Shown: piece after piece, positions 2,921 to 60,959 of the stretch
Layout: every line of letters begins with the position of its first letter
Position numbering within the stretch: position 1 is the stretch's first letter
NCBI GenBank assembly: GCA_964016885.1
Contig: OZ024740.1
Span: forward strand, 346,270,001-346,334,000
Length of the DNA stretch: 64,000 bases
Direction: 5' to 3'
Source: Eledone cirrhosa
Lineage: Eukaryota
Made by a program: the position numbers and the translations under genes
Notes under the pieces: generated by a model
The model's database searches: none
Told to the model about the DNA's origin: nothing
What the model saw: the letters and a program-made list of their open reading frames with translations, nothing else

Positions 2921-4118
2921 GTTGAACACTGGAAGGTAATATCCGTAGTGGTAGAGCACTCAGTCCATGGGGCGAGTTAGGTAGAAGTGGTTACACAACA
3001 GTTAGTTCACCATCCGAGAACAATTGTTTCACCTTAGCGGATCCTCAGCTCGTAATGGGCTTGGTTATACGGAACAAGAAGGACGACCGTACGAACGCGC
3101 AATGGCAGAAACCGTCACTTCCCACAGGAAATACTAAAATGCGAGCGAGAGGTGTAAGGGAGATAACTGCGAAAGTCCGAAAAGTTTTTAGTTGATAAGA
3201 AATATTATGATGTTGTTACGATAATTCAGTCAATCCGGAGCTTTGTAGTTATGCAATAGGAATTTCGAGACCTGTTGACAACGTGTGAAAAATTCATTTC
3301 TCCTGTTTAGGCAATCACTATTGCATAATCTCTTTAGAATATGTATTCGTTCGTCAATACATAGTATATACGACGGATTTCCCCTTGCGTATGGCTTGGA
3401 CTTAGTAATGGCTTTCTATTGAATGGAGTAGTCTATACTTGAGTCCTTGAGGGACCATACGTGGATCGCTGTCCGGGTACCTAAAGGTCGACTGATGGTT
3501 CAGGAAACACTCCTTAAATCGGCCCTCCGCAATGCCCACATAGGATTTGACCTCCTGTGGTTCGTTTGGTCGGTTGGAAGTGACCACAGCTTCATAAATT
3601 AAATCGTAACAATAGACAAACTATGTGGTTCTCTCCGCCCTTCTCACTCAACGTTAAAACCAATGTAGGCAAAACATTTCTAGCCCTCTTAGATAGACCC
3701 TTTCCCATAATTCATAAATACAGCTCCATCTTTAACCGACACAAAGTTAAAGTAGGATACTCCTGCGCTAAGAACATGAAGGCCCACATCACCAGCAGCC
3801 CTAGGAGCAACACACGACCAGGGTGCTCTTGCCGTAAGCCCGAAGCTTGCCCCCTTCAACAGCAATGCAAGACACCAGCTGTAATTTATGAAGCTGTGGT
3901 CACTTCCAACCGACCAAACAACCACAGGAGGTCAAATCCTATGTGGGCATGACGAAGGGCCGATTTAAGGAACGTTTCCTGAAACATCAGTCGACCTTTA
4001 GGTACCCGGACAGACGTTCATCCACGAAACTCGTGAACTACGTATGGTCCCTCAAGGACTCAAGTATAGACTACTCCATTCAATAGAAAGCCATCACTAA
4101 GTCCAAGCCATACGCAAG
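2918..4118. mobile_element. PLE fold-back insertion (minus copy 2918-3600 with 3' end; inverted plus copy 3600-4118)
   Basis: The plus frame gives WFSPPFSLNVKTNVGKTFL..CSCRKPEACPLQQQC..IYEAVV..SYVG. Segment 3360-3600 is a near reverse complement of about 3880-4118. Confidence 0.85.
3015..3052 (-). ncRNA. Minimal type I hammerhead ribozyme
   Basis: The minus strand reads CGAG-CTGAGGA-t-CC-gctaa-GG-t-GAAA-C-aatt-G-TT-CTCG: 4-bp stem I, intact core, palindromic loop 3 (AATT) and a GUU triplet. Confidence 0.8.
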
Positions 4119-4144
4119 CTGCAGCCATCATGTATGCATGTATG

Positions 4145-6228
4145 TTCTTCTGGTTTTATAATTTCAGAAATGTTTACCAATAGAGAGAGGGTGTCGGTTT
4201 CTAACATAGACACAAGACTCTCTCATTGGAATTTATACATCATCAACTTGGTAGATGATGTATGCATGTCTGCATGTATGCATCTGTAGATATGGTTGTT
4301 ATTGTATGTGTGGATGTGGATGTTGTGAGTTGTATGTTTGCATGTATATATGCTTTGTATCTGTACATGTGTATATGCAGTCATTAAATGCAACATTTTT
4401 GGAAGGTTTTACATATTTTTACTGTTCCATTAATGGATTGTACTTGTAATTTCCTAACTAGTTGTGTTCTTTCTGTTCCTGTGAAGCCTAGCTTCTCAAG
4501 ATTTGTATTGAGGCAGTTACTAACAAACCCCAGTGCCCCAATAATCACAGGCATACATTTAAAGGTGTAATCAGGGTGGTGTATCTGCATTTTTCTCATC
4601 ATTTCTGCATAAATATTCTCCTTTTCGCTAATCTTTTATATTATATTGGCATCTGCTGGGCAGCTAACTTCGACTACTGTGCATGCTTTCTTTTCCCTGA
4701 CCCATATCATAATATCTGGTATGTTATGCCTTCATTTTTGGGGGGTTTTTACTGTAACATTCCATCAGTACTGTTTCATATTATGTATATGGATGTCTTC
4801 CACATTGCTGTAGCATTTAATGTGTTTATTATCAGGGCTATCTTTTCTACGGATTGCATTGTACTGTGTTTTGGCCTCTACATCATGCCTCATAGGTAGA
4901 TAGTACCGCGATGACATCTTTGGACAGCTGCTGATGACATGGGTGATATCCTCGATGTTAGTTCTGCAGAGCCTACACTTGTTATCACATCTAGGTGTTT
5001 TTCCTGCATCCCTATCTCTTTTGTAAATCAGGTATTTCGTGTTAGTTTCCTGTTCTTTGATTGCAAAAGCGTATCGTTCAAATTGGGAGCCAATATAGAG
5101 GTTGTTGGTCCAAGATAGACTACTTCGCTTATCTATATTACTCTCACCCTGGAGCTTCCTGGCAACATATCCAGGCATGATTGTTTTGCTGATAAGCATG
5201 CAGTTTTTCATCCATGGATTCACTGCGGTACTGCTGGGCAATTTCCCTGGGTGTAAGTGTTTGACTTTAATGAAGGGAGTATCTTTCAAGGAGTTCCTTC
5301 CCATCTCTCATATTATCTGTCTCATGCAGACAGTCTTGTTCAATAGATGGGATTCTATTCCTCGAGGTTCGTAAATGTCGGAGGGATATGATGCGACACT
5401 CAAATGGTATCTGGACTGATGTTAAGCCTCTGCCTTCCTGTTTAGGTTTCAAGAAGAGGCGGTCTATGTCACAGTTGATGTGGAATTTTCCGGTGTTGCT
5501 TAACATTTTTCAAGTTTTAACATCAATTACTCGGATTTCGTCTAGCATCCAATCGAGTTTTTCCAAACGTTGGTGTTAGGACAGACACAGAAAACACATT
5601 GTGCGTAGTGAGTTGCGATGACCATGTTTTTCTTAATCGGGTGTAATATTCGCTGGGTCCGCGTACCTTATTACAAATACTATTATTGGATATATTCTCA
5701 TCTATCCCCAGTTATCTGTAGCAGTCCTCGTCAAATATCGGTGAGAGTTAGGTCATTGATAAAAATGTTGCTGAATTGTGTTGTAGTTTTTTCCCCGCTT
5801 TACAATCATATTTGAACATTTATCTTGGCCTAAATCCATGCCTATATACTTTGAGAATGGTGTAACCATGTCAAGATTTTTCTTCCTCCCACTTATGTTC
5901 TTGGCATCGAGTTTCAGGTCATCCACAAAGAAATTATGGTTTAAGCTCGTATTTCTGTCCTCCTGTGAGCCAATGATGTATCCTTCAATATTTCTTGAGT
6001 AGAAAGGCTAAGGAGTTTAATGACAGGATAAATAGAACCACAGATAGACTGTTTCCTTGAAGTATATCCCTGTGATATTCTATTTTATCAGTGAAAATAG
6101 AGTCTGCCTTCTCTGTTTTTAACGTTAGGATAGTAGCCCGAGAAGACAGCTTCTTTATTGCTCTGATAACAATGTCTGGGCCTTTAGCAAGTCGGAGGGC
6201 CTCTATCATCCAAAAGTGGGGAACAGAA
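4145..6228 (-). mobile_element. R4/Dong-like non-LTR retrotransposon relic (RT C-half, CCHC knuckle, REL endonuclease)
   Basis: ORF pieces give YSVPHFWMIEAL..ILQGNSLS, DIDRLFLKPKQEGRGL, FAIKEQE, CRLC..EDITHVISSC..RHD and PVIIGALG. The element is frameshifted and flanked on both sides by (TGTA/CATA)n-like repeats. Confidence 0.8.
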
Positions 6229-14192: not shown

Positions 14193-15142
14193 AACAAAGT
14201 CAATCTGTAAACGCAGAAGTGGATATTCCAAAAAACATTGCAACTGGAGGAAGACAGGAAGACGATACTTTGGTTCGTGGAAACGTTCCCTGGCAAAGAA
14301 CGGGAAAAAACGAATATAATACGTCATTAGTAGGAGCGGTGAAAAACAATTACGCGCAAATACAGAACCACGTTTATGGTATAAAAGAGGTTGTAGACTA
14401 ATGTTCTCTTAGGTGGTTCATAGAGACGTTCTCTGGAAATGAACGAAAAAAACGAAGATAATACGTCATATGTGGGGCGTGGAGAACAATTGCACGCAAA
14501 GACAAAACCACGTAAATGGCATAGCAGAAGTCGTAGACTAAAATTCTAACTAGGAGACCGAATGATTCTCCGCTTCAGAGTTAAGAACAAAGTAAATAAA
14601 TACAATGCAGAAGTAATAGAAATTAAATAAATACATACGCGCATACAAATACGTACATACACAAGCATACGCGAAAGCACTTACATAAGTATACAAAACC
14701 ACGCACATATAAATATGTGTGTGTGTGTATGCGTGTATACAAATAAATAAATAATTAAAAATATAATTAATTAAACGTATATAAATAAATAAATGCGTAT
14801 ATATCAAGCGCACACACATACCTACATGTAAATACATAAATGTTCGGAGACGTAAGTCAACCAACACATGAAGTACACATATACACAAACCCTACGTACG
14901 TGTGAACCTGCATACTCACACAGACGCAAAACTCCCATATACACATAACCAAACCATATGTACCAGAATATATTAAATTATACGCCATAACATATACAAT
15001 CAAATATACGAACGAGAATGTATACGTACCTTCACAAAACATACAGGTAATATATACTTACCTATGCAAATAAGTAATGGTATAAACAAAACATATACTT
15101 AGCTACCACATCAAGACGTAAAATATCCACGTATAGATCGTT

Positions 15143-17271
15143 CTATCCGTTAGGGTATAACGTGGGGCTGTAATGCAGGAGAGTGTTGTGTAATTTATGT
15201 TTACAAGCCGAAATTGCCTCAGATTTGTTGTTTAAGATGTGGTCTGTGGCGTAGAGTATTTCCAGGGCCTCAGCGGCGCAGAGGTCACATGTTCTTTTAT
15301 TTCCGTTATACGATCTAGCCTTAGCTAGGATCTCCCACTGTAACTTATATTGGGTGTGGTTGTCTTTTAGACTCCAGATATAAGCTGAAAGTGACGCCAT
15401 ATTCCTTCTTAGAGGGTAACGAAAAGAATGGGTATGCATGTAAAGACGCTGCTTGAATCTGTTGGCGGTTAACCCTATGTAGGCTCTACGGGACGTGGGT
15501 GTTTCAACCGTACATTTGTAGACAATGTTACTAGAGAGGCATTTCCCGGATAGGGGGCAATCATCCCGATTCCTACAATTACAGTTAGTACTAATTACAG
15601 GGTTGCACGTGTTACTACGGCTAGGTAGTTTAGCTAAATTTGAATCTGTGATGTTATGTGCAAAGTTAGGAGTCGTAGAGTAAGACATTTTAATAGTATT
15701 TCTATTAAAAACTTTACTATATTTATGTGTAGGGGGAAAAAGCTTCGTAATAAGGGAAAGAAAGATCCTAGCTAATGGTGTGGCCACATCCATATTATAA
15801 TGGTGGGTTATACCAACAAATGCGACGGGATCTATTTCTTCTAGGTCTATTTTCGTACTCTGTATATGCTACCTTATCGACAAATCCACTCCGAGCAAGA
15901 GCTTCATTGTAATAAGTGGAATGGTCGTTGAAAATATGCTCGTTAGTAGATAGACGGGAAAGCCTCAACGAAACGTTTCTTACCATGTTCTTGGTTATGC
16001 TGGCAGGATGGTTGGAATGCTTACTTATGTAATTAAGCGTATCATTCGGCTTTCTATACGGGAAATAAAACCCATTCAATAAATTGAGGGTAACGTCGAG
16101 GTAATTAACGAGCGAGAGATTGGCCTCAACCTGTATAGAGAGGTTGAAGCCTTTAAAGAAGGCTGTGAGTTATTTTCTGAAACTGTCGCAAGCACGAGGT
16201 CCGCACTTAGTCATGGTCAAAAGACCATCATCACGGTACAAACCACCGCCCGCGTTGGGGAATTCGTCCTTGATAGAGAAAATAAGGAAAAGGCCGATAA
16301 GATCGGTAACCTCCGCAGAATCATTGGCGCCCATACTCACTTCGAATGGGGTACTATTGGATTGTTTAATCCAAACAGAATCGTCGAAATTAATCACCGA
16401 CTTACGGGCATTGAGGATGACATCAACTTCGAAATCCTTGACCACTGTGAGTGTTTTAGCGAAATTGATAGCTCTAAGGAGAAGTGGTAAAGTGATGGAG
16501 GAGTAGTAATTGTTGATGTCGAATGGGATAAAACGGCAGTGTTCCTTGTTACATATGCCGTTGAACCAATCAATCACCGCGAAAGAATTATTCCACAGTG
16601 CAAGAGGGGCCAAACTCCTAATATCAGGTATCATTCTATCAAGAATCGTTTTACTAAGTCTACTTAAATCGGACTTCGTAGGGTTAATAAGCCGAATAAA
16701 GGGGTTGTTCGGAAAATTGGATTTGTGATCCTTCAGGGTAAAGTGGGGAGAAATAGGTCCAGAGGTTCGGTCCGGTCCAGGATGTTGAGATCAGATGTGA
16801 TGTTAAACCCAGCATCGTTGATTTCATTGATGGCACACCGATTAATTTTACGGTAATCCTTAGTTACAGCATTATGTAGTAGTTGATGGTAAATACTGCG
16901 CTCCACTTGATATAGGTTGCCAGTTTTGTCGGAATGTACATGCACGGCATTAGAATCCTTAATAGAACGAATTCTATTCTTCAGGTCCTGCTGGAAGGCA
17001 TTGCACCTATTCCGAAATTTGATACTCCGTATGAGTTCCAAGACATTATTTTCGAAGGGTAGCAATGCTGGGTTACACGGGGGGTTATTATAGATTTTAA
17101 ACCCAAATTTATCCTGTTTGTTGTCTGCTTTCGCGGATTATCGAAATAAAAGGCACGCCAAAGCAACCTTTTAATGAACGCATCTGTTTTCTGTATCAGG
17201 AGTTATAGGTATGTTTTCCTGCTGGGTACGGGTATGTTCTTTGTTGAAATATTCAGATGTTGTTTCTGCAT
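15143..17271 (-). pseudogene. Disrupted PLE polyprotein (RT + CxCx5Cx5C linker + GIY-YIG)
   Basis: ATG at 17271 begins MQKQHLNISTKNIPVP. Motifs follow: DKTGNLY, RFIPFDINNYYSSI, SMGANDSAEVTDLIGL, GLYRDDGL, WYNPP, CNCRNRDDCPLSGKC, IVYKC..AYIGLT, CDLC..CKH. There are several frameshifts and stops. Confidence 0.92.
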
Positions 17272-18401
17272 GATGAATATAAGTCAATAGAATGCTCAAC
17301 CGAGGGAGTCAAATAGTAATAATAATAAATTTGAAGACTAAAATCCAAAGAGGGCTCGATAAGGATAAATATATATCAAATATATAAGAACCGTAGAGCA
17401 AATATTTATTAAAATAACAGATTAAAGTTTAAGAAAAGAATCGCTGCTTTCACCCTTAACGGGATCTTCTGAAACTAACAAAGTCAATCTGTAAACGCAG
17501 AAGTGGATATTTCAAAAAAACGTTGCAACAGGAAGACGATACTCTGGTTCGTGGAAACGTTCCCTGGCAAAGAACGGGAAAAAACGAATATAATACGTCA
17601 TTAATAGGAGCAGTGAAAAACAATTACGCGCAAAAACAGAACCACGTTTATGGTATAAAAGAGGTCGTAGACTAATGTTCTCTTAAGTGGTTCATAGAGA
17701 CGTTCTCTGGCAATGAACGACAAAAACAAAGATAATACGTCATATGTGGAGCGTGGAGAACAATTGCACGCAAAGACAAAACCACGTAAATGGTATAGCA
17801 GAAGTCGTAGACTAAAATTCTAACTAGGAGACCGAATGAATACCCGCTTGAGAGTTGAGTTCAAAGTAAATAAATACAATACAGAAGTAATAGAAATTAA
17901 ATAAATACATACGCGCATACAAATACGTACATACACAAGCATACGCGAAAACACTTACCATAGGTATACAAAACCACGCACATATAAATATGTGTGTGTG
18001 TGTATGCGTGTATACAAATAAATAAATAATTAAATAAACGTATATAAATAAATACCTATATAACAAGCGCACACACATACCTACATGTAAATACATAAAT
18101 GTTCGGAGACGTAAGTCAACCAAAACATGAAGTACACATATACACACACCCTACATACGTACGAACCTGCATACTCACACAGATGCAAAACTCCCATATA
18201 CACATAACCAAACCATATGTACCAGAATATATTAAATTATACGCCATAACATATACAATCAAATATACGTACGAGAAGGTATACGTACCTTCACAAAACA
18301 TACAGGTAATATATACTTACCTATGCAAATAAGTAATGGTATTAACAAAACATATACATAGCTACCACATCATGACGTAAAATATCCACGTATAGATCGT
18401 T

Positions 18402-19510
18402 CTATCCGTTAGGGTATAACGTGGGGCTGTAATACAGGCAAGTTTTGTGCAATTTATGTTTACAAGCCGAAATAGCCTCAGATTTGTTGTTTAAGATGTG
18501 GTCTGTGGCGTAGAGTATTTCCAGGGCCTCAGCGGCGCAGAGGTCACATGTTCTCTTATTTCCGTTATACGATCTAGCCTTAGCTAGGATCTCACACTGT
18601 AACTTAGATTGGGTGTGGTTATCTTTTAGACTCCAGATATAAGCTGAAAGTGACGTCATATTACTTCTTAGAGGGTAACGAAAAGAATGGGTATGCATGT
18701 AAAGACGCTGCTTGAATCTGTTGGCGGTTAACCCTATGTAGGCCCTATGGGACGTGGGTGTTTCAAACTTACATTTGTAGACAATGTTACTAGAGAGGCA
18801 TTTCACGGATAGGGTGCAATTAATCCGATTCCTACAATTACAGTTAGTACTAACTACAGGGTTGCACGTGTTCCTACGGCTAGGTAGTTGAGCTAAATTT
18901 GAAGCTGTGATGTTATGTGCAAGGTTAGGAGTCGTAGAGTAAGAAATTTTAATAGCATTTCTATTAAAAATGTTACTATATTTATGTGTAGGGGGAAAAG
19001 CTTCGTAATAAAGGAAAGAAAAATCTTAGCTAATGGTGTGGCCACCTCCATATTATATGGTCGGTTATATCAACAAATGCGACGGGATCTATTTCTTCTA
19101 GGTCTATTTTCGTACTCTGTATATGCTACCTTATCGACAAATCCACTCCGAGCAAGAGCTTCATTGTAATAAGTGGAATGGACGATGAAAATATGCTCGT
19201 TAGTAGATAGACGGGAAAGCCTCAACGAAACGTTTCTTACCATGTTCTTGGTTATGCTGGCAGGATGGTTGGAATGCTTACTTATGTAATTAAGCGTATC
19301 ATTCGGCTTTCTATACGGGAAATACAACCCATTCAATAAATTGAGGGTAACGTCGAGGTAATTAACGAGCGAGAGATTGGCCTCAACTTGTATAGAGAGG
19401 TTGAAGCCTTTAAAGAAGGCTGTGACTTCTTTTCTGAACCTGTCGCAAGCACGAGGTCCGCACTTAGTCATGGTCAAAAGACAATCATCACGGTACAAAC
19501 CGCCACCCAC
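18402..19510 (-). pseudogene. 5'-truncated second copy of the PLE ORF
   Basis: ORF-track peptides GGGLYRDDCLL.. and ..AYIGLTANRFKQRLY..CDLCAAEALEIL are near-identical to those in 15143-16250. Confidence 0.88.
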
Positions 19511-19602
19511 GTTGCGTTTACAGATTGACTTTGTTAGTTTCAGAAGATCCCGTTAATGGTGAAAGCAGCGATTCTTTGGTTAAACTTTAATCTGTTATTT
19601 TA

Positions 19603-19686
<84 letters not shown>

Positions 19687-19749
19687 CATATATATATATA
19701 TATATATTTTTAGTATATTTGCACTCAAAGACAGACAGACACACACACA

Positions 19750-19797
<48 letters not shown>

Positions 19798-19920
19798 GTA
19801 ATAATATTATTAATAATTATAATAGTAATAATAATAATTTTGAAGACTAAAATCCAAAGAGGGCTCGATAAGTATAAATATATATCAATCGGTTGAGCAC
19901 TCTATTGACTTATATTCATC

Positions 19921-21893
19921 ATGCAGAAATAACACCTAAATATTTCTACAAAGAACATACCCGTATCTAGCAGGATGACATACCTAAAATTTCGGATACA
20001 GAAAACGGATTCGTTCCTTAAATTGTTGCGTTGGCCTGCCTTTTATTTCGATAACCAGGAAAAAGCGGACAATAAACACGATAAATTTGGGTTTAAAACT
20101 TATAATAACCCTCCGAGTAATCCAGCATTGCTACACTTCGAAAACGATGTCTTAGAACTCATACGGCGTATCAAATTTCGGAATAGGAGCAATTCCTTCC
20201 AGCAGGATCTGACGAATAGAATTCGTTCTTTTAAGGATTCTGCCGTGCACGTCCACTCCGATAAAACTTGCAATGTATATCAAGTGAAGTGCACTATTTA
20301 CCATCACCTGCTACATAATGCTGTAAGTAAGGATTACCGGAAAACCAATCGGAGTGTCATTAATGACATCAACGATGGTGGGCTTAAATCACCTCTAAAC
20401 TCTTCATCCAGGACAGGACTGAAATTCTGGACCCTATTTCTCCCCTCTTTACCCTTAAGGATCACAAACCGAATTTCGCCAACAACGCCTCTATTCGGCT
20501 AATTAAACTTACGTAGTCTGATTTAGTGAGACTTAGTAAAAGGATTTTAGATAAAATGTTACCTGAAATTAGAAGCATGGCCCCTCTTGCAGTGTGGAAT
20601 AATTTTTTCGCGGTGATTGATTGGTTCAATGGCATATGCAACAAGGAACATTGCCGTTTTATCCAATTCGACATGGATAACTACTACTCCTCTATCACTT
20701 TACTACTTCTTCTTAGAGTTATCAATTTCACTAAAACGCTCACGGTGGCTAAGGATTTCTAAGTTGATGTCATCCTCAATGCCGGTGATTAATTTCGCCG
20801 ACTCTATTTGGATAAAAATCTAATAGTACCCCATTCGACGTGAGTATGGGCGCCAGCGATTCGGCGGAGGTTACATATCTTATCGGCCTTTTCTTTCTTT
20901 TCTTTATCAAGGAAGAATTCCCCAATGTGGACATTGGTTTGTACCGCGATGACGGGCTTTTGACTATGACAAAGTGCGGTTCACGTGCTTGTGACAGGTT
21001 CAGAAAAGAACGCAATGCCTTCTTTAAAGGCTTCAACCTCTCCATACAGGTCGTGGCGAACCTTTCGATCGTTAATTACCTCGACGTTACCCTCAATTTG
21101 TCAAATGGCTTGCACTACCCGTATATTACAATGAAGCTCTTGCTTGGAGTGGATTTGTCGATAAGGTAGCATATACTAAATATGAGCATAGACCAAGGAA
21201 AAATAGATTCCGACGCATTACATCGTATAACCCACCATATAATATGGAGGTGGCCACACCATTAGCTAAGATCTTTCTGTCCCTTATTAAGAATTCATTT
21301 CCCCTCAGCACATGTATGTAATAGAATTTTTAATAGAAATACCATTAAAATATCTCACTCTACGACTCCTAACCTTGCACATAATATCAGTGCTTCAAAT
21401 TAAGCTAAATTACCCAGCAGTAGGAACACGTGCAACCCTGTAGCTAGTACTAACTGTAATTGTAGGAATCGGGATGACTGCCCGCTCTCCGGGAAATGCC
21501 TCCCAATAACATTGCCATCAAATGTAAGGTCGTAACACCCACGTCCCATAGGGCCTACATAGGGTTAACCGCCAATAGATTCAAGCAGCGTCTTTACATG
21601 CACTCCATTCTTTTCTTAACCCATTAAGAAGGAATATGACGTCTCTTTCAGCTTATATCTGGAGTCTAAAATACAACCACACCCAATATAAGTTACACTG
21701 GAAGACCCTAGCTAAGGCTAGATCGTATAACGGAAATAAAAGACCTTTCGATTTTTCCGCCGCTGAAGCCCTGGAAATACTCTACGCCAATGACCACGTC
21801 TTAAACAAAAAATCTGAGGCAATTTCGGCTTGTAAACACAATTTGCATAACACATTCCTGTATTACAGCCCCACATTATACCCTAACGGATAG
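19921..21893 (+). pseudogene. Disrupted PLE polyprotein
   Basis: Motifs RFIQFDMDNYYSSI, SMGASDSAEV, GLYRDDGL, CNCRNRDDCPLSGKC and AYIGLT are present, with many frameshifts and stops and an internal deletion near 21125. Confidence 0.9.
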
Positions 21894-22598
21894 TACGAAC
21901 AATACGCGGATAATTTACGTTATGATGTGGTAGCTAAGTATATTTTATGTATATACCATTACCTATTTGTATAGGTAAGTATATATTACCTGTATGTTTT
22001 GTGAAGGTACGTATACTTTATCGTACATATATATCCTTGTATTTGTTATAGGTGTATATATTATATTATATATACTGGTATATGTGTATATATGGTTATC
22101 TGTATATGTGTATTTTGTGTTTGTGTGTGTATGCGTGTATGCGTGTTTGCAAGTATTTAAGGTGTGTATATGTGTACATTGTGTTTTAGTTGACGTACGT
22201 TTGGTAAACATATGCGTATTTACCTGTAGGTATGTGCGTGCGTGCGTTTTAAACGTATTTATGTGTGTATACTTATATACGTTTATATAATTATATGTAT
22301 ATATACACACAGACATATATTTTTTTATATGTATTTGGTGTATACGTTCGTATGTGTACGGAGACATGTGTCACGCGGGTTTATGCATGTGTGCACGTGT
22401 TTATGTATACGTGCATATATATGCATGCATGGCGGGTTACCTTAACGGATAGTACGAACAATACGCGGAGAATTTACGTCTTGATGTGGTAGCTAAGCAT
22501 ATTTTATGTTTATACCATTACTTATTTGTATAAGAACGTATACCTTACCCGTATGTTTTGTGAATGTAAGTATACTTCCTCTCCTATTTATATATATA

Positions 22599-25757: not shown

Positions 25758-25775
<18 letters not shown>
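25590..25775 (-). mobile_element. Probable Helitron 5'-region fragment
   Basis: The minus strand starts tatataaaacagagaatgtctgtctgtc, resembling the (CTGT)n-containing 5' ends of invertebrate non-autonomous Helitrons. The terminal TC is lost in (TA)n. Confidence 0.4.
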
Positions 25776-25794
<19 letters not shown>

Positions 25795-25799
<5 letters not shown>

Positions 25800-28498
25800 C
25801 AAGATCAAAAGATGGCCAAAAGAGTTCCAAGTATTTTATTATGCGCACCCCAAAAACAAACATCATCATGCGATGACATCCGCGCCCCCATCAGACAAAA
25901 TAGGGAGTCACGATACGAAGCCCCCCAAAACACCCGTGAGCAGTGAAGCTCTAAATCAACATATGAAAAAACAATGTAAGATGGATATATGAGACTGGGA
26001 AAAAAATGAGGGGTAGGGTAGGAAAAGGCAACGAAGAGGTAGAAAGAAAATAAAGGACGGTGGGGGAGGAGTACAAGAAGGAAGAATGAGCGACAGAGAG
26101 AGAGAAATAGGCTCCACAACTGAGAAAACACTGTCTCACAGGGAGAAACCAAAAAACCGTTGGAAGACAACAGACAATTCAAAAAGACTTTGAAACCAAA
26201 GGTTAATGAGGTCTATGGATGTTGATGTCCATGATTGAAGAAAAAGGAATTAGGAATAGTATTAATTTAGGTTCACGCACTGAAGTGTTCTACAATATGT
26301 GCTAAAAAAAGGAGACCCCATCAACATATATCATTAAAGTAAAAATATTAATGACATCAGGATAGAATGTGACAGAGGAGAAGAACAAATGAGCTATGAA
26401 CCCAGAGGAACCATCTAGGGTTTAAGTTTGCTTTCATGTACTGCAACATGCAAAAGCAAACAGTAGGCCCAACATAAGCACGGAAGGAGAGAAGAAAAAA
26501 GAGAACCTAGGAAAGAAAAAATATCCAACGTCAAAAAACTCCCATGTCCACAAAAGTCCTCTAATGATAATATCATTATATATCAAAAAATATATAGCTT
26601 TTATGGCCAATAATATGAGGAAAAACGGAAAATGGAAAATGCTGCAGTTAGTAACAATATGAACTGAGAAGCAACTGGGAAGCAAAGGTTACAGATTAAA
26701 GATTAGAAATTAAAAAAGAAAAAAAAGAAAGAAAGGAAAAAGAAAAAAAAGAAAGAAAGGAAAAACGACAAAAAGAAGAAAGACAGAGGACCACAACGAC
26801 ACAGAGCGAGCAAATTGTACAACACAATATACCGAAACAAGGCAGAAAGATGGGCATATCTGCAAAAGACACAAAAGCCTTTGAGAAAAGAAGACCTCAA
26901 ACCACTTAGGCATTGAGACACCAGCTGCACACTTCATAGAATGCCCATGGGATCCATGCAAGCAGAGCGAAAATAAATCCGTACGTCCACCCACCACAGA
27001 ATCAAAATTAGATACAATGGCAAATTTCCCGGCCAGGCAGAGACCACATGCCCCGGACAGGGAGGAACCCAGGAAAGGAAAGGCGCAGCAAACCCTCCAC
27101 CAAGAGATGCCATAGCCAATATTTTTGTCTCTTAAGGACCACACGAGCTCCGAGATGCCGTGCCAGTGTGGTCTCTGCATGGCCGGGAAATTTGCCATTG
27201 TATCTAATTTTGGTTCTGTGGTGGGTGGACGTACGGATTTATTTTCGCTCTGCTTGCATGGATCCCATGGGCATTCTATGAAGTGTGCAGCTGGTGTCTC
27301 AATGCCTAAGTGGTTTGAGGTCTTCTTTTCTCAAAGGCTTTTGTGTGTTTTGCAGATATGCCCATCTTTCTGCCATGTTTCGGTATATTGTGTTGTACAA
27401 TTTGCTCGCTCTGTGTCGTTGTGGTCCTCTGTCTTTCTTCTTTTTGTCCTTTTTCCATTCTTTCTTTTTTTCTTTTTTAATTTCTAATCTTTAATCTGTA
27501 ACCTTTGCTTCCCAGTTGCTTCTCAGTTCATATTGTTACTAACTGCGGCATTTTCCATTTTCCGTTTTTCCTCATATTATTGGCCATAAAAGCTATATAT
27601 TTGTTGATATATAATGATATGATCATTAGAGGATTTTTCTGGACATGGGAGCTTTTTGACGTTGGATATTTTTTCTTCCTTAGGTTCTCTTTATTCTTCT
27701 CTCCTTCCGTGCTTGTTTTGGGCCTACTGTTTGCTTTTTCATGTTGCAGTACATGAAAGCAAACTTAAACCCTAGATGGTTCCTCTGGGTTCATAGCTCA
27801 TTTCTTCTTCTCCTTCTGTCACATTCAATCCTGATGTCATTAATATTTTTATTTTAATGATACATGTTGATGGGTTCTTCTTTTTTTAGCACATATTGTA
27901 GAACACTTCAGTGCGTGAACCTAAATTAATACTATTCCTAATTCCTTTTTCTTCAATCATGGACATCAACATCCATAGACCTCATTAACCTTTGGTTTCA
28001 AAGTCTTTTTGAAATGTCTGTTGTCTTCAAACGGTTTTTTGGTTTCTCCCTGTGAGACAGTGTTTTCTCAGTTGTGGAGCCTATTCTCTCTCTCTGTCGC
28101 TCATTTCTCCTCCTCTCTCATTCTTCCTTCTTGTACTCCTCCCCCACCGTCCTTTATTTTCTTTCTTCCTCTTCGTTGCCTTTTCCTACCCCTCCATCCC
28201 TCCTTTTTTTCCCAGTCTCATGTATCCATCTTACTTTGTTTTTTCATATATTGATTTAGGGCTTCACTGCCCACGGGTGTTTTGGGGGCTTCGTATCATG
28301 CCTCCCTATTTTGTCTGATGGGGGCGCGGATATCATCCCATGATGATGTTTGATTTGGGGGTGCGCATAATAAAATACTTGGAACTCTTTTGGCCATCTT
28401 TTGATCTTATATTATTTATACTTCAGCCCTATAAACTGTAGAGTGCTACATATCCGATATTAGCATTGCGTTATTGTGCTACAATAAAACTCACCTCC

Positions 28499-28502
<4 letters not shown>
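25795..28502. mobile_element. PLE fold-back (minus copy 25795-27165; plus copy 27166-28502) with A-to-G hypermutated segments
   Basis: Inverted arms of about 1.25 kb surround a ~118-bp spacer. The GIY-YIG C-terminus is recognisable (LVWSLRDKNI.Y.ISW..CGLCLAGKFAI..VVGGRTDL..CLH). The same 3' tail occurs alone at 43001-43072. Confidence 0.85.
28307..28377 (+). ncRNA. Hammerhead fossil with core A replaced by G (mirror copy 25832-25902 on minus strand)
   Basis: TATTTTGT-CTGATGG-gggcgcggat-atcatc-ccat-gatgat-gtttgatttg-GGGG-T-gcgc-A-TA-ATAAAATA: 8-bp stem I, long stem II, palindromic GCGC loop 3. CTGATGA reads CTGATGG and GAAA reads GGGG. Confidence 0.75.
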
Positions 28503-28543
<41 letters not shown>

Positions 28544-28549
<6 letters not shown>

Positions 28550-31500
28550 TAACAAAAGCAATTAAATAAACACGAAGAACAACTTCTTTATATTAAAACA
28601 TTCATCATTTTACGATTTTTTCTGGGATGTATATGTGTGTTGGTAGGCATATCATATAGATCTACGTAAAAATATTACGAATTATCAGAGGAAATATACA
28701 TACCTTCACATATACATGCCGTCCTCAGAAATGATGAGATGTGTTTATTGAAAATAACAAAGAATTAATATAAAGGGTCTGTTTGGGAACAGGTTTTGAA
28801 TTGACCAATATATATAAGGAAAATCTGAAGTAGATAAAATAATTTTTTATAAAGAATATTGTATCTATAGGGACATTGATGATATTAAAGATATCAATTA
28901 TATTTCATAATCATAGGTATTAAATGTGATAAATAGGGGATGCGAATAAATGAAGTAGTGTGGTTAAAACTAATTTTAGGAAGTGAGAGCTGTAAGAGCC
29001 AAAACAATATCAACTTCACTGTAGTAAAATACTAAATATAGGTTAACTAAATTAAAAACCAATTATAATAATTTGTAAAATATAAGAGTAAGGTGTATAT
29101 TAATTAGGTTTATAATATTTGAAGGTTCTTCTAATTCTATGACTGCAATATATAATTAATTGCTGTTGCTTATTTAATAGGATATCCTTAGATTTCATGA
29201 TTTCTTGAGAGCATAACCTACACTCGTATCTGCTATGTTGATAAGGGTGGCCATTTTGAGCACGTTCCAGGTCAGGTTGTAATCTATGTCCTTTTTTCTA
29301 TAATTATTAATTGTTTCAGCCAAGGATGTTGTATTAGCTAATGCGGCATTTTTAAAACTATGTTTGTGGGTATTAAATCTTACTTTAAATTGCTTAGACG
29401 TAGCTCCTATATATAAATAAATATAGTCCTTAGTGCTAACGTTACATTTAATACTATGTTATTAATAAGACAATTTCCCTTTAATGGGCAATTTCTTTTG
29501 ATTCTACAGTTACAACCATTCGTGAATATTATATCAGGGGAGTTGGTTAAATTTGGTGTGGAATTTACAGGACATGTTATAGGTGAAGGAGATGGTGGTT
29601 TGTTATGGTTTATTTTAGTATTATTATGGTGGGTTTGATGTGTTGGTGGTATATTTATGTTTTTTTTACACTTATATGCGTTGTACGCACTTATATTCTG
29701 TTGTAAATATTTGGTAGTGGAGTAGGATTATTTGACTGTCGATCTATTTAAAATTTGATGGTATTTATGGTTTGGTGGGAAGTTTTTCTCTAGGATAGCA
29801 AATGATTTTTTAAGGATATTGTCTTTAATTTGTAGATTAAATGGAGCATTATGCCAAGTAACCCGTCTATTATGGTTTCGATATTTGTTCTTATATTTAT
29901 ACGATGTATCAGGAGGTTTACTAAGAGAGTTACTATTAGTGATTTTATTATATATAGGTTTAGTTAGATTAACTGATTTAGGTGTTTTAGTCTGATTACT
30001 AGAATTGTGTTACTAGTGCAGTTAACATATGTTGGAGTATTAGGATAAATGGTTTTTTGAAAGTCATTATATTTTATGTGAGAAGAGGTAGAAAAATTAA
30101 GTTTAGGTTGGTGTTTTCGGTGTAGTATGAGTGGCATTTAGGTGTGGGTATTTCATTTGGTGTTCGTTGGTAATATTAGGTTGTATGTTTGAAATATTAT
30201 TGGTGCAAGGTATGTATACTAATTTGTTTTTGTGGCCACTTCTAGCTAAAGCTTCGTTATAAAAGGGCGCATTTTTATCGAATACATCCTGATTTGATGA
30301 AAGGTTAGGGAACCTGAGTGAGATGTTATATGCTAGGTTTTTAAAGATAGATCTAGTGTGATTAGATTGTGAGTGTATGTAATGCAAGTTTTGGTTAGGT
30401 TTATGGTAAGGTTGGTAGATACCCGTAGATAGGTCCAAAGTGATATCTAGGAAATTGACTATTTTACTGGTGTTTTCAAATGTGATAGTGAGATTATAAT
30501 ACTCTTTGGGAAAAGTTCTAAGTTTTTTATTTCTTTCAATTTCGGATAGGCTAAGATTAGTGGATAGAAGAAGACAGTCATCACGATATAAACCACCGTT
30601 AAGGTGGAGGAAAGATGAATTAATGTTAAATAGAAGAAAGAGGTCCACAAGATCGATAATTTGGGCGGAATCACTACAGCCCATAGTTATATCGAAGAGA
30701 TTACTATATGTATTTCTGGTCTAGTGTTCCTTCTGAAACTCCAGTAGTGTTTGTCTAGCGTGCGTGATAATATTTATGTCATCCTTTTTATAACGAAGAT
30801 TTAGCTAGAAGTGGCCACAAAAACAAATTAGTATACATAAATTGCACCAATAATATTTCAAACATACAACATAATATTACCAACAAACACCAAATGAAAA
30901 ACCCACACCTAAATGCCACTCATACTACAACTAAAAACACCAACCTAAAACTTAATTTCTCTTCCTCTTCTCACATAAAATATAATGACTTTCAAAAAAC
31001 CATTTATCCTAATACTCCAACATATGTTAACAACATTACTAACAGAATTCCTAGTAATCAGACTAAAACACCTAAATAAGTTAATCTAACTAAACCTATA
31101 TGTAATAAAATCACTAATAGTAACTCTCTTAGTAAACTTCCTGATACATCGTATAAATATAAGAAACAATATCGAAACTGTAATAGACGGGTTATTTGGT
31201 ATAATGCTCCATTTAATCTACAAATTAGAGACAATATCCCCCCAAAATTAGTTGCTCTCCTAGAGAAAAACTTCCCACCAAACAATAAATACCATAACAT
31301 TTTAAATAGATCTACAGTCAAATTCTCCTACTCCACAACCAAAGTTTTACGACAGAATTTAAGTGCGTACAACGCATTAAAGTGTAAAAGCCATTAATAT
31401 ACCACCAAATATACCAACATCACATCAAACCAACCATAATAATACTAAAATAAACCATAACAAACCACCATCCCCTTCACCTATAACATGTCCTGTAAAT

Positions 31501-33247
31501 TCCACACCAAATTTAACCAACTCCCCTGATATAATATTCACGAATGGTTGTAATTGTAGAATCAGAAGAAATTGCCCATTAAAGGGAAATTGTCTTATTA
31601 ATAACAGAGTATATAAATGTAAAGTTAGCACTAAGGACTATATTTATTTATATATAGGAGCTACGTCTAAGCAATTTAAAGTAAGATTTAATACCCACAA
31701 ACATAGTTTTAAAAATGCCGCATTAGCTAATACAACATCCTTGGCTGAAACAATTAATAATTATAGAAAAAAGGACATAGATTACAACCTGACCTGGAAC
31801 GTGCTCAAAATGGCCACCCTTATCAACATAGCAGATACGAGTGTAGGTTATGCTCTCAAGAAATCATGAAATCTAAGGATATCCTATTAAATAAGCAACA
31901 GGAATTAATTATATCTTGCAATCATAGAATTAGAAGAACCTTCAAATATTATAAACCTAATTAATATACACCTGACTCTTATATTTTACAAATTATTATA
32001 ATTGGTTTTTAATTTAGTTAACCTATAATTAGTATTTTACTACAGATAAGTTGATATTTTTTTTGCCTTTTACAGCTCTCTCTTCCTAAAATCATTTTTA
32101 ACCTCACTACTTCATTTTTTCGCATCCCCAATTTATCACATTTAATACCTATGATTATGAAATATAATTAATATCTTTAATATCATCAATGTCCGTATAG
32201 ATACAATACTCTTTATAAAAAGATTATTTTATCTACTTCAGATTTTCCATATATATATATTTTATTTTTATTGCTTCAATTTCTTACTTCTTTAACTATC
32301 ACATTCTTTAATTATCACATTCTTTAATAACATCAAGTTTTTATTTATCACATTCATATGAATTAATATAACTTTATCCCTGTAAGTATACCTATAAATT
32401 AATTTAATTTCCTGTTATGTATTTATATTCCTTGTAGTTTAAATAAGATTAGTATTTCTCACTAATACCCTTTTCCCAAAATTTTATTTTCCTTCGTTTT
32501 TAACAACACTCTTTAATAACATCAAGTTTTTATTTATCACATTCAAATGAATTAATATAACTTTATCCCTGTAAGTATACCTATCAATTAATTTAATTTA
32601 TTGTTATATATCTAGATTCCTTGTGGTTTAAATAAGATAGATATTTCTCAATAATACCCTTACACTAAAATTTTATTTTCCTTCGTTTTTAACAATATTA
32701 TTTAATAACATCAAATTTTCGTGTACCCTTCACAATCTTCATGACTTGATATCATTTCATCTCCACGGTATTCTTTTCATTCAAAGCATAAGTCTGCACT
32801 CCTATACCCCTAGATTTAATCTCTACTACTGTCATTCTATCAACTTGACCTATAACTCCTTTTCTTTTGGTCAATTCAAAACCTGTTCCCAAACAGACGC
32901 ATTATATAATTCTTTCTTTTTTTTCAATAAACACATCTCATCATTTCTGAGGACGGCATGTATATGTGAAGGTATGTATATTTCCTCTGATAATTTGTAA
33001 TATTTTTACATAGATCTATATGATATGCCTACCAACACACATATACATCCCAGAAACAATCGTAAATGAAATAAACACAAAGAACTTGTTCTTTGTGTTT
33101 ATTTCATTGCTTTTATTAATTTATCTTGACTCAGTTTTCCTATTATTTTTATCGTAAATTTTGTAATGTATCTTCACTATTCATGATATCTTATATATTT
33201 GGATTACATTGAGTTCTTCATACGGATTTGACACTACCGTAGACTAC

Positions 33248-50837: not shown

Positions 50838-53800
50838 TTTCTTTTTATTTGCCACCAGGGCATCAAAAAGTGGGACAAGTACAATGGGGGGAGTTTACAC
50901 AAAAAGGCGAGTAAGGAAAACAAATAACAAATATAAAATTAACAATAAAGTCCTCAATAGGGAGGGGGCGTTTGGGGGCTCGCACACACCCCCGAAAAAA
51001 GTGTGCAACCCCTTCTCCTTAGGAGCACAGAGAGAGGGTGCTCCCTCGTTCCTTCCTCTTTTCCACCTACAGGCTGATGTAAAGAGAAGGCCCATTCACA
51101 CGGGCCATTCTCGCCACTTTCACCCACCTTTCATAAAAACGAGTTGGGTGGAGCACCTCTCTCTCCATCCTGATCCTTCTTCCGAAATGATATCGGAAGA
51201 AACGGACCAGTTGTTGGCCAGAGAAATGGTGCCTGACCTCAGCCCTTTCAGACGCGTCCACCATACAACCTCTTTCACCATGGCTATTACGCACAGAAAC
51301 ACCGCCTCTCCTTCATTTTTGAAGGGGGGAGGCGGCTTGATCGTTACAATAGACTCGGTGGTCAACACCGGATCCGTCCCACTCTTGACAGCAGTTGTTC
51401 GACATAGCCCCACAGATCGGCTACGCCCGAGCAGTGTACCAATGCGTGTGCAACGGTTTCCTCGTCGCACACGCATCTGGGACAGATCTTTTTGGCGGGG
51501 TACCTACCCGGGCACACGTGTCTGTAGAGCTTTTCTCGAACGGGTAGAGCCCCTAAGTTGCACTGCCAGGCCAGGGACTTCTGGAAGTTGTCCATAGGTC
51601 CCGGGCTGAATGTCCTACCGAACAGGCTGGCCAGTTCGTCTTCCTCCATGTCTAGGGCTTCTCCGAGGGCACCGTCGCACCTGCTGCGTACTAGCCCTCT
51701 ATAAAATGTTGCGGTGGAGTCTCCACTGATAACCGGGTCCGCCTGCCAGAGGGCGGTGAGCGCCTGGGCAGACTCAGTGTGCCAGGCGCCCAGTTTTCTC
51801 GGTCTTTTCTTGACCCAGGATTGCAGCTCGGTGAGTGAGACGAGTCTGGGAAAGGTTCCTCTCACAAACGAGGCTCACACCGGTTGACCGGTGAGGAATA
51901 CGTGGAGGGGCCGTAGCCTTAATGCGTGTGTACGCATCATTAGCCACGGCATCCCCAGCCCTCCTTTCGAAGGGTGTTGACAGCAGATGGATCTCCTCAC
52001 CAAAGGAGCCCGCTTCTTCCAAAGAATTGGAAGAGTGCGCTCTCCATCTTGGCGAGGGTTTCCCTTGGGCAAGGCACGACGGTCAGGCAGTAGTAGATGA
52101 CGGACGCTATATAGGTGTTTGCCACCTCCGCCCGACCTTTCAGGGATAGTTTGCAACTGGCCCACTTCTGGGTCAGTGCAAACACCCTGTTCGTAACCTC
52201 AGCCCAGTTCTTCTCCACCTGGAGGTCTGGTCCGAACCAGACCCCGAGCAACTTCACCGGGCCCTCCGTCCAGCGTCCGACGACGCCATCGGAGGGCATC
52301 GGTCTGCCCCTCCACGTGCCGAGTTGCAAACCGATCGACTTGTCCCGGTTCAGCTTAGCCCCTGTGAACCTTTCGTACTCCTCCAGTAAGGTGCCGATCG
52401 CCCCGATTTCGGAGGCCGTCGACACCATTACTGTCACGTCGTCGGCGTAGGCCGACACCGCTTTCCGCAATCCAGGTTCCAAATGGATGCCCTGCAACAA
52501 ATCCAACTTCCGCAGTAGTGGCTCGAGAGTCAATACATACAGAAAGGAGGAGAGAGGGCACCCTTGTCGGATGGGTCGCGCGATTTCGAACGGCTCCGAG
52601 AGGTAGCCGTTCACCTTGACTCTAGAGCAGATGCGGCTGCTGTGCATAGCAGTGATCCAGACCCTGAAAACGGGTTCGAAGCCTGCCGCCGCTAGCACCG
52701 CATCCAGGTAACCATGGTCGACCCTATCGAACGCCTTAGATTGATGCAAGTTGATCAGAGCCCCACAAAAGCCGGGTTCGTTCCCAACCCTCTCTATGAT
52801 GTATCGCATGAGGTGGAGGTTGTCATGGATGGACCTGGACGTGATAGCACACGTCTGCGCATTTCCCACCAGGTTTCCCACGACAAGCGCCAACCTCTCT
52901 GCTAGCACCTTGGCCAAAATCTGTAACTCTGTATTTAGCAGAGTTATGGGCCTGAAGTTACTTATTTCGTCCCCCTTGTTCTCGTCCTTCCTCACTAGCG
53001 TGACTACGCCCGTGGTCACAGCACAGGAATTCTCCCGTTCTGTTGCCAGTTGCAGTAGACCGCCTCGAGGAGATCGGGGAACAAGTCCGGCATAGCTAGA
53101 TATAGTTCGTATGGAAGACCATCGAGACCCGGAGATTTGCGTTTGCCGCATTGGCTCAGCACGTCCTCTATCTCAGCGGCTGAAATCGGCTCCTCGCAGG
53201 ATTTCGCCTCCCTGTCCGAGAGACGAGGCAGGCCGTCGAGGTATGGACCGAAGTCCACATCCCCGCCCCTTCCGAACAATCGGGCAAAGTGCCTTTTTAA
53301 GGCCTCACACATCTGCTTAGGTTCAAAGATCGCCCGTCCATCCTGGTCTCGCAAAGACTGGATGGTGGATTTAGTTCCACTCTTGGCCTCTGTCACGCGG
53401 GCCTAGCTAACAGCTTTGGTCCCCTCGTTCCCTAGAGCACGTATTTTACTTCAGACAACGCAGCCTTCGTGCTTCGCGTCGAAAAACTGGCACAAAGCCG
53501 TTCTCGACGCTAGCACTCTGGCCACGTCGCCGCTTCTAATTGCCTCTTCTACTCTATCTATCAGCTCCCTTTCCTTCCTATTCCTATCCGCAGCTAGAAC
53601 CTTACTAAATTCTATCGAGACTAATCTAATCTCTCTCTTTAGAGATACCCACCACCTGCTGTTGGCGATCGCTCCAGTCAACCGCTCCTTAACTAACGTA
53701 CTAATCCGGTCCCTGTAAGCTTTACTTGCCGGTAAGGACAAGTTCAGCTTCCAGTAACCGGGGCCCTGTCTATGCGTTCTATCAAGGTTGACCATGCAGG

Positions 53801-55260
53801 TCACCAAATTGTGGTCTGAATAGCCAACCATGAGCATTTCTGGACAACTTAAAATGCCCCTGTCCTTATTTCTAACTAAGAACCTATCTAGGCATGATCT
53901 AGATTGACCGCTGCGATTTGACCAAGACCAGGTTGGCACCGTCGGAAAATCTAGTCGAAATCTATCGGCCAGGTCAAATCGGCCGAGTAACCCCTTGAGG
54001 CTGTTGCACCCCTCTCTATCGGGACATGCCCCTGCATAGTCCCAACGTGCATCCAGGATACCATTCCAGTGTCCCACTAAAAGCAGGGAACGGGACGTCC
54101 CTAGAAAAGACTCCAGATGCTGGAAAAAGTCGGGCCGCTCTGTCCCAAAAGGGGCATATGTGGCTACCAGCCTAAAGGCCCCACATTCACCACTGCCGAG
54201 GTCCAGCAACACCAGTCGATCCCCCCGGGTCCAAGTGAACTATCTGTGTGGCGAGACCCAGATGTTTTTGCAGCAGAAGGACAACCCCACCCCCACCTCC
54301 GGGCTGAGAGAGAGATGCGTGCATCTCAAAGTCATCAAAGGTGGGGGCTAGCTGTCGCATGCTGCTGATCCGGGCCTAGCAGATAACCATCACATTTATA
54401 GATCGTGCCCTAAGGTCATTTAGAAGCATTGTTTGCTTCCAAGATGAGCCCAGGCCACGCGCATTTAGACACCCTACTCTCAGCACAGCCATGTTGGTGG
54501 TAAGGAGAAAAGGCACTTACCTCTCTGCGTCCCGGGGAGCGGGCCGCTCAATTTCCATGAGGGTTGGGGATGGGTTGTTAGGTGGGGTGGTGGTTTGTGG
54601 AAGTGTAGGGGCATCAGTGTGTTGTGGGGTTGGGGTATTTGTGGTTGAGTGGGTGTCTGGGTGAGGGTTGGGGAAATGTTTTAGGAGGACGCGGTTGATT
54701 GGCTTAGAGCAGGGGGGGGGGGGTTAGCACGTCCTCCGTGAAATTTATTTTCAACGTTTTGTATAAGTTCATTGGGACTTTAATCATTTGTAAATGAGGT
54801 AGACCCACAGCAGTTAGAAAGTTAGGCCCTTCAGTTTGGACCGAAGGGTTTGACGAAATTGTGTTCATTAGTTCTTTGTTGTCTGTGTTCATGTATGTAT
54901 ATTGTAAAGTCTTTTTTTGCGTAGCAGTTAGTGTTGTGTGACGGGGAGGGGTGGTTTGTATATAGTTTGTTTTCTCTTGGAGAGGGTTAATGTTAATAAG
55001 TGTGTCTGTGGTGCGCTTCCTCTTCATTCTTTTTACCATTTGGAAGGGTTCTTTTTCGTCTTGCGACAAAAGGGGTTCGTCTTCCTTGTTGGGTGGGAGG
55101 GGTATATTTTCTGCTAGTGTTTGCGGTGTGTGTGTTTTTGTATTTGTTTTGGGTGGGGAGGATAGATAGTCTGCTCCACTCTCCTTTTCTAATATTCTTT
55201 TACTACTGTAGTCCACATCCACGTCCCATGCATGTGCGCAGCACCGACCGACGCTCATTC
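50838..55260 (-). mobile_element. L1/Tx1-clade LINE, near full length and degenerate
   Basis: GC-rich island with an ORF1-like remnant (54704-55258), an APE-RT ORF2 and a 3' UTR with AATAAA near 50845. Confidence 0.88.
51067..54492 (-). pseudogene. Tx1-like ORF2 (AP endonuclease + RT + C-terminal Cys motif), frameshifted
   Basis: Motifs: MAVLRVGCLNARGL, YAP, SCLDRF, YSDH, GPGYWKLN, KSPGLDGLPYELY, NFRPITLLN, KAFDRVDH, RQGCPLS, AYADD, KGGLG, CPRC..EETVAHALVHC. Confidence 0.9.
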
Positions 55261-60848: not shown

Positions 60849-60854
60849 GTATGG

Positions 60855-60922
<68 letters not shown>

Positions 60923-60959
60923 AACAAAATATAAGGACGCCGAATTATATTTTCATATC

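Follow-up and report, generated by a model that had tools for sequence, protein, structure and literature searches.

In A-to-G hypermutated avian retroviral proviruses, edited RNA has been reverse-transcribed and fixed in DNA, and in plants the retroprocessing of edited organelle transcripts fixes edits in DNA as well. The avian proviruses derive from exogenous viruses in culture and the plant cases concern C-to-U site editing; neither carries a two-arm barcode on the insertion of a Penelope-like element (PLE). G>A 'DNA editing' by APOBEC enzymes is fixed in vertebrate LTR retrotransposons (Knisbacher and Levanon, PMC4866542), and fixed G>A deaminase footprints of APOBECs in retroelements are described in PMC2873906. 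The screen of Knisbacher and Levanon was filtered against A>G, and the 19 invertebrate genomes in it were blank (PMC4866542). Dense A-to-I editing of inverted-repeat RNA has been reported from RNA reads, among others for the Penelope RNA of a lizard, which is heavily edited at over 40,000 sites (Porath et al., PMC5625713). PLE hammerhead ribozymes are of type I, lie in the pLTR/3' region and were predicted to act as dimers (Cervera and de la Pena 2014, PMC4209133). A literature search, in main texts and with few subscription journals, revealed no account of genomic A>G hyper-edited PLE copies, and a text search of a 2026 preprint on PLE-derived retrozymes found no mention of ADAR.

The window analysed here is a stretch of 64,000 nucleotides from the 3.0 Gb genome of Eledone cirrhosa (contig OZ024740.1, positions 346,270,001 to 346,334,000). 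Comparison of the window with itself showed that positions 25794-28501 form an inverted pair, the arms of which are 93% identical over 1,281 aligned bases and differ at 43 of 1179 columns and by indels of every type (Table 1). Arm 2 contains, in this order, the end of an endonuclease ORF, the 3' UTR/pLTR, a hammerhead motif and a tail. Arm 1 has the same parts except for the tail and starts with ~118 nt of 5' sequence absent from arm 2, the translation of which agrees with the unedited family ORF found at another locus, L123. Head-to-head 5'-truncated copies with a tail on one arm and (TA)n targets are known from other PLEs (PMC3846280; PMC8557442; PMC11167929), and the tail of ~87 nt compares with 30-40 nt in known PLEs. 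The locus is a head-to-head pair of truncated PLE copies, very probably derived from an RNA that ADAR had hyper-edited in its double-stranded form before reverse transcription into the germline, with the ribozyme core changed as a bystander.

That the hammerhead belongs to a PLE, as proposed in an earlier sequence-only reading, is supported by the family ORF. In L123 this ORF is an open frame of 520 codons in which an RT YRDD motif, a Cys-rich linker between RT and endonuclease, and a GIY-YIG-like end with a C-terminal CxxC region were recognized by eye; the translation of the window tracks it with many substitutions. Pfam and PDB scans of the family ORF gave no direct match. It has 43 homologues at 29-49% identity, and one of the three that were scanned matches GIY-YIG (PF01541) above the cut-off. 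An RT followed by a GIY-YIG endonuclease in one ORF, and inverted 5'-truncated arms with a single tail at microsatellite targets, which in the window are (TA)n runs on either side, are both as expected of a PLE. A zinc-finger-like linker between RT and endonuclease is a feature of the Neptune/Nematis clade (PMC8557442). Many family loci, among which L082-L099, hold short pairs of 400-500 nt that are near-perfect palindromes and share a start preceding the ribozyme cleavage site by ~130 nt, which suggests that the 5' end of the RNA is fixed or that these loci form a non-autonomous subfamily. Other fragments with PLE-like RT and GIY-YIG sequence are present in the window at 14987-22049, 28998-32066, 58903-60952 and 3584-5307, two of them as large inverted pairs. 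The window also harbours LINE-like endonuclease and RT open frames in GC-rich surroundings (51362-54239, minus strand) and, within 38443-62859, a SINE-like dispersed repeat of 65-165 nt in 5-8 copies (families D18-D20).

Table 1 Features of the inverted pair in the window and of the source-daughter pair elsewhere in the genome
Feature	Position	Strand	Basis
(TA)n microsatellite, left end, likely target site	25762..25793	.	sequence
Arm 1: inverted copy without tail, same edits	25794..27165	-	A>G 137/330
Mirror hammerhead motif in arm 1, core changes identical	25832..25902	-	motif layout
5' extension, arm 1 only, GIY-YIG coding region, also edited	27049..27165	-	A>G 20/41, T>C 0/33
Arm 2: 5'-truncated Penelope-like copy, A>G hyper-edited	27167..28501	+	135/332 yardstick As
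Type I hammerhead motif, core A9, A13, A14, A15.1 read as G	28307..28377	+	motif layout
Stem I 5' strand	28307-28314	+	motif layout
CTGATGG	28315-28321	+	motif layout
Stem II	28322-28357	+	motif layout
GGGG	28358-28361	+	motif layout
TGCGCA	28362-28367	+	motif layout
TA of AUA triplet, putative cut after 28369	28368-28369	+	motif layout
Stem I 3' strand	28370-28377	+	motif layout
3' tail, ~87 nt, arm 2 only, unedited	28415..28501	+	A>G 0/23
(TA)n microsatellite, right end, likely target site	28502..28547	.	sequence
L119 edited retrocopy, ~2 kb	L119:4224-6270, G000:C1 ~284.01 Mb		alignment to L123
L123 unedited source	L123:3790-5837, G000:C3 ~318.63 Mb		alignment to L119

A motif scan and a part-by-part reading confirmed the type I hammerhead layout with a CUGAUGG...GGGG core that had been described for both arms. 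A canonical type I scan of the window gave zero matches, and a scan relaxed for A/G on both window strands found nothing besides this motif. Both arms lack the CUGANGA / GAAA / UH core: A9, A13, A14 and A15.1 are G, and A6 (28318) is unchanged. The U-rich stem II strand gtttgttttt of the earlier description was recovered in the mirror arm only, as 28348-28357 reads gtttgatttg. Rfam hammerhead families were unmatched at E<=5 in the window as well as in the unedited copy L005. A DNA search for paralogues yielded 818 candidates, of which 40 were scored and 30 fetched, and 28 served as yardstick. All 28 of these top paralogues align across the motif, most with CTGATGA and GAAA. Counted by motif, 46 of 55 paralogue motifs are fully canonical (CTGATGA..GAAA..TA) and the other 9 differ by one or two letters. 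The unedited relatives that the sequence-only reading had proposed to look for are thus present, and its reconstruction of the ancestral core bases as adenosines is borne out. As the paralogues carry CTGATGA and GAAA, the core Gs are derived, and by this comparison the window hammerhead is a derived, core-mutated copy. The long helix II and the very short helix III with palindromic loop are as in known PLE hammerheads; core variants are described there, whereas the core in the window was hypermutated by an A>G burst in a genomic copy (PMC4209133).

In ViennaRNA predictions natural family copies form an 8-bp stem I and a 15-bp stem II within 1.3 kcal/mol of the free minimum, and TGCGCA pairs between molecules in the predicted dimer fold. 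The edited motifs lose the closing pairs of stem II beside the core, and their hammerhead fold lies 3.3-5.0 kcal/mol above the free minimum instead of 1.3 kcal/mol. Unconstrained folding of 86-nt pieces gave weak and uninformative z-scores of -0.6 to -1.6. With A9, A13, A14 and A15.1 changed, the edited hammerhead is predicted to be unable to cleave; hammerhead mutagenesis is the basis for calling such a core dead.

The A>G change had been thought to be confined to two patches, but it is spread over the whole element. Compared to a column-by-column consensus of the 28 paralogues (1,220 columns), 135 of 332 adenosines in arm 2 and 137 of 330 in arm 1 read as G (~41%), on the transcript strand only. 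Each of the 28 unedited paralogues shows 0-4 A>G changes, and no other substitution type exceeds 9 in an arm (T>C 8 and 9; A>C 2 and A>T 1 in arm 2). The excess of A>G is far greater than chance would give. Edits occur in 25 of the 26 scored 50-nt bins, the sole edit-free bin being the last one, in the tail; the tail is unedited (0/23) versus 137/330 in the body (p=9e-6). Ten consecutive unedited As lie across the cleavage site (28367-28384), a stretch often edited in other loci. A longer unedited run, of 14 As, is found elsewhere in the element (permutation P=0.05). The family stop codon has become TGG at 27292-27294, and close by the reading frame departs from that of L123 through a 1-nt gap. 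Grouped by 5' neighbour, edited As in the window number 73/131 after U, 41/95 after A, 6/54 after C and 5/16 after G; in 15 other edited loci pooled the figures are 60/92, 85/147, 11/69 and 14/63, respectively. Hyper-edited sites in RNA show strong depletion of upstream G (PMC5625713). The lowest class in the window (C 11%, G 31%) and in the pooled loci is C; only the young source-daughter pair described below has its minimum at G (4/17). The bias for U and A over C and G fits the reported ADAR motif only in part.

The 3' half of the hammerhead motif has 21,673 matches in the genome, often as close pairs on opposite strands. Patterns forcing one or two Gs gave 70 matches, repeats included, from which 15 further hyper-edited loci were obtained. 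The resulting ~16 edited loci amount to roughly 0.1% of the family motif matches, which is a lower bound for loci found by G-forcing patterns. One such pattern had 27 matches, 7 of them hyper-edited and the rest with isolated changes, and the pattern for A9>G had 12, namely the 2 window arms and 10 copies with one or two changes in the matched text. A pattern forcing G in the 3' strand of stem II was rejected as an editing signal: its 9,677 matches represent a subfamily variant, 30 loci of which were used as a second yardstick. Locus L109 (3/21) was too weak to be kept. The edited loci fall into five read-through pairs with A>G on one genomic strand in both arms (L032, L040, L103, L106, L132), five mirror pairs (the window, L039, L048, L049, L137) and six loci with single or uninformative arms.

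A flank of L032 matches another contig at 100% identity and led to L123, an unedited locus from which a 2-kb daughter, L119, is derived. Source and daughter are on different contigs, and the daughter has new flanks while the source is intact. Over ~2 kb, 160 of the differences between them are A>G and 14 are of other kinds. Adenosines in inverted repeats were changed at 82 of 155 positions (53%) and unpaired adenosines at 2 of 234 (p=9e-38); in self-complementary TA repeats 76 of 227 were changed. Two edited short repeats have their inverted partners up to ~4 kb away in the source, indicating that a long read-through transcript had been formed. In three of the five read-through loci the edited hairpin is directly followed on its 3' side by an unclassified repeat of 600 nt in the same orientation, 'element B' (L122:5216-5840; L119:3640-4225; L120:3193-3784). 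It occurs near only ~6 other fetched loci, is absent from L123 within 9.9 kb and gave nothing at gathering level in Rfam; it may act as a mobiliser by template jump at TA repeats. In L119:4224-4620 and in the L120 flanks of 4730-5150, (TA)n has become mixed TA/TG (CA) through A>G on one strand, and editing plus retro-copying may generate compound microsatellites in this way.

ADAR editing follows RNA pairing and affects both sides of a hairpin in transcript sense, sparing loops and tail. The attribution to ADAR-type editing in the sequence-only reading agrees with the data, since A>G occurs only on the transcript strand and depends on pairing in L119/L123. Confinement to double-stranded RNA is evident from the L119/L123 counts and from the five same-strand hairpin loci, and in the window from the spared tail only. 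Adenosine-deaminase-domain genes (ADAR, ADAT or ADAD class) are found at four places in the genome. A search of sequencing runs for words from the family sequence listed no RNA run; 65-69% of the sampled words occur in three runs of one sample, which may be that of the assembly itself and is not counted as support. A head-to-head pair would have been transcribed as a read-through RNA that folds into a long hairpin; as family pairs have one tailed and one tail-less arm, such an RNA can fold with the tail unpaired. Adenosines in the duplex would be deaminated and the tail spared, as seen in the source-daughter pair, and the reverse transcriptase of the element would have read inosine as G while copying the RNA into an AT-repeat target. 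The spared tail of the window is as expected if the partner arm had no tail. The best paralogue among those compared shares only 3 of 20 diagnostic non-A>G variants with the window, so the source locus was not found and its duplex partner is proposed by analogy. Dense A-to-I editing of inverted-repeat RNA was likewise observed by Porath et al., in RNA reads, whereas in the present case it is the genome assembly that contains the edited sequence (PMC5625713).

The two arms of the window share 134 of 141 edited sites, with 3 and 4 private ones. In the other mirror pairs all edits are shared (L039 12/12, L048 11/11, L137 8/8, L049 1/1), while for 120 arm pairs from different loci the median Jaccard index is 0.28 and the maximum 0.73. 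The 7 discordant A/G sites in the window fit later mutation (4.3 expected, P=0.14). The near-identical edit sets indicate a common origin of the arms in one molecule, which had been edited on its sense strand. Furthermore, the arms overhang reciprocally, the tail being present in arm 2 only and the ~118 nt of 5' sequence in arm 1 only. Exactly one tailed arm is found in all 37 head-to-head pairs of a set picked by the searches, with one source-daughter couple counted twice. In this set the tail-less arm is longer at the 5' end in 19 pairs, equal in 11 and shorter in 7, and it has the longer 5' end in four of the five mirror loci. Fold-back of cDNA would make the tailed arm longer; as the tail-less arm more often is, two primings on one RNA are inferred. 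A single sense RNA would have served for priming from both target ends, with one start at the tail end and the other immediately upstream of the tail. It is fairly probable that this is how the shared edits and the reciprocal segments arose. The two starts proposed here are in line with in vitro work on a PLE protein, which cuts both target strands, extends them, and initiates reverse transcription at two sites that bound the tail (PMC11167929). Double priming needs an RNA that survives its first copying. The PLE RT is not known to have RNase H.

Less probable, but to be taken seriously, is that the edits came to be shared by cDNA fold-back with later loss of the centre, by conversion between the arms after insertion, or by transcription of an already edited DNA master. 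This alternative concerns the double-priming step only, and its likelihood does not exclude that of the ADAR-based explanation. Palindromic junctions have indeed been read as self-priming (PMC3846280), in L048 the tailed arm exceeds the tail-less arm in length, in agreement with fold-back, and equal 5' ends are seen in 11 of the 37 pairs; the excess of longer tail-less arms (19 versus 7) argues against it. Conversion is made less likely by the read-through pairs, which retain different edits in each arm and show that arms are not homogenised as a rule. For an edited master, no second locus with the pattern of the window was detected among the 40 of 818 candidates scored and in the pattern searches. 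Self-priming on an antisense template was also proposed, with the matter left open, but the edits described here suggest that the template was sense and that one RNA gave rise to both arms (PMC3846280). Both patterns for antisense-arm edits together gave 8 matches, only in the five read-through hairpins, versus 11 sense-only or mirror loci, which in these small numbers speaks against antisense self-priming. Priming of both target ends on one sense RNA remains the preferred reading of the mirror pairs.

Strand-specific hypermutation of a single type can also arise in reverse transcription itself. An A>G burst made by the reverse transcriptase, through pool imbalance or adenine-specific error, or made by DNA deamination, is nevertheless very unlikely. 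In one and the same retrocopy the unpaired adenosines are nearly error-free (2/234) whereas 53% of the paired ones are changed, and changes that follow pairing are not expected from polymerase error. The adenosine changes in the window are almost entirely A>G, and deamination of the cDNA strand would give sense T>C, which is at background. APOBEC-edited LTR copies resemble the PLE copies in having clustered, strand-biased changes of a single type with unedited sources present, but differ in that APOBECs deaminate cDNA, while the changes here are A>G, confined to paired RNA, and in a PLE (PMC4866542).

The sequence-only reading had also suggested that editing of the ribozyme forms a control or defence layer, in which ADAR would inactivate the ribozyme by acting on the hammerhead core. 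Four of the five core adenosines are G in both arms, and the predicted loss of the stem II closing pairs and of fold stability would fit such a role. Against the 41% background, however, four out of five is not significant (P=0.09), and the ribozyme as a whole is edited at 9 of 25 adenosines versus 126 of 307 in the rest of the element (p=0.68). Over 16 edited arms from different loci, with pattern-forced positions dropped, core (20/62) and non-core (95/292) rates are the same (p=1.0), and A6 is edited in 0 of 15 arms. Edited loci are also few, ~16 versus 21,673 motif matches. A hammerhead would probably not fold within a long duplex, and the edited RNA was integrated all the same. Edits 3' of the cleavage site (28392-28393) show that the template was uncut, and tens of thousands of canonical family copies span this site as well. 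The edited ribozyme, if dead as predicted, had no visible effect on insertion, and in vitro a PLE protein inserts RNA equally well with a dead ribozyme (PMC11167929). Targeting of the core is accordingly highly improbable, and the core was likely hit as a bystander of element-wide editing. Least probable of all is an artefact of assembly or polishing, such as edited RNA reads written into the assembly: the edited letters are known here from the assembly alone, but the arms differ by substitutions and indels as aged DNA copies do, one pattern runs over 1.37 kb and is mirrored, and the daughter L119 lies on another contig with new flanks alongside an intact source.

On balance, edit patterns in germline DNA appear to serve as barcodes of retrotransposition, in which one uncleaved sense RNA is primed twice, from the two ends of the cut target, and edited read-through hairpins are retro-copied to new chromosomes, flanks included, and editing would act as a heritable mutagen in this animal. 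For the PLE ribozyme this means that templates spanning the cleavage site are copied, whether the core is intact or not. The main value of the findings lies in the source-daughter pair and in the barcode of a single RNA, more than in the ribozyme. L119 and L123 document with unusual clarity how RNA editing has passed into inherited DNA, in a class of genomes that was blank in the earlier screen for edited retroelements, which concerned G>A in LTR elements. The origin of PLE inverted repeats, from a sense or an antisense template, is stated as open (PMC3846280; PMC8557442), and edited copies provide an in vivo test of their formation from genome sequence alone.
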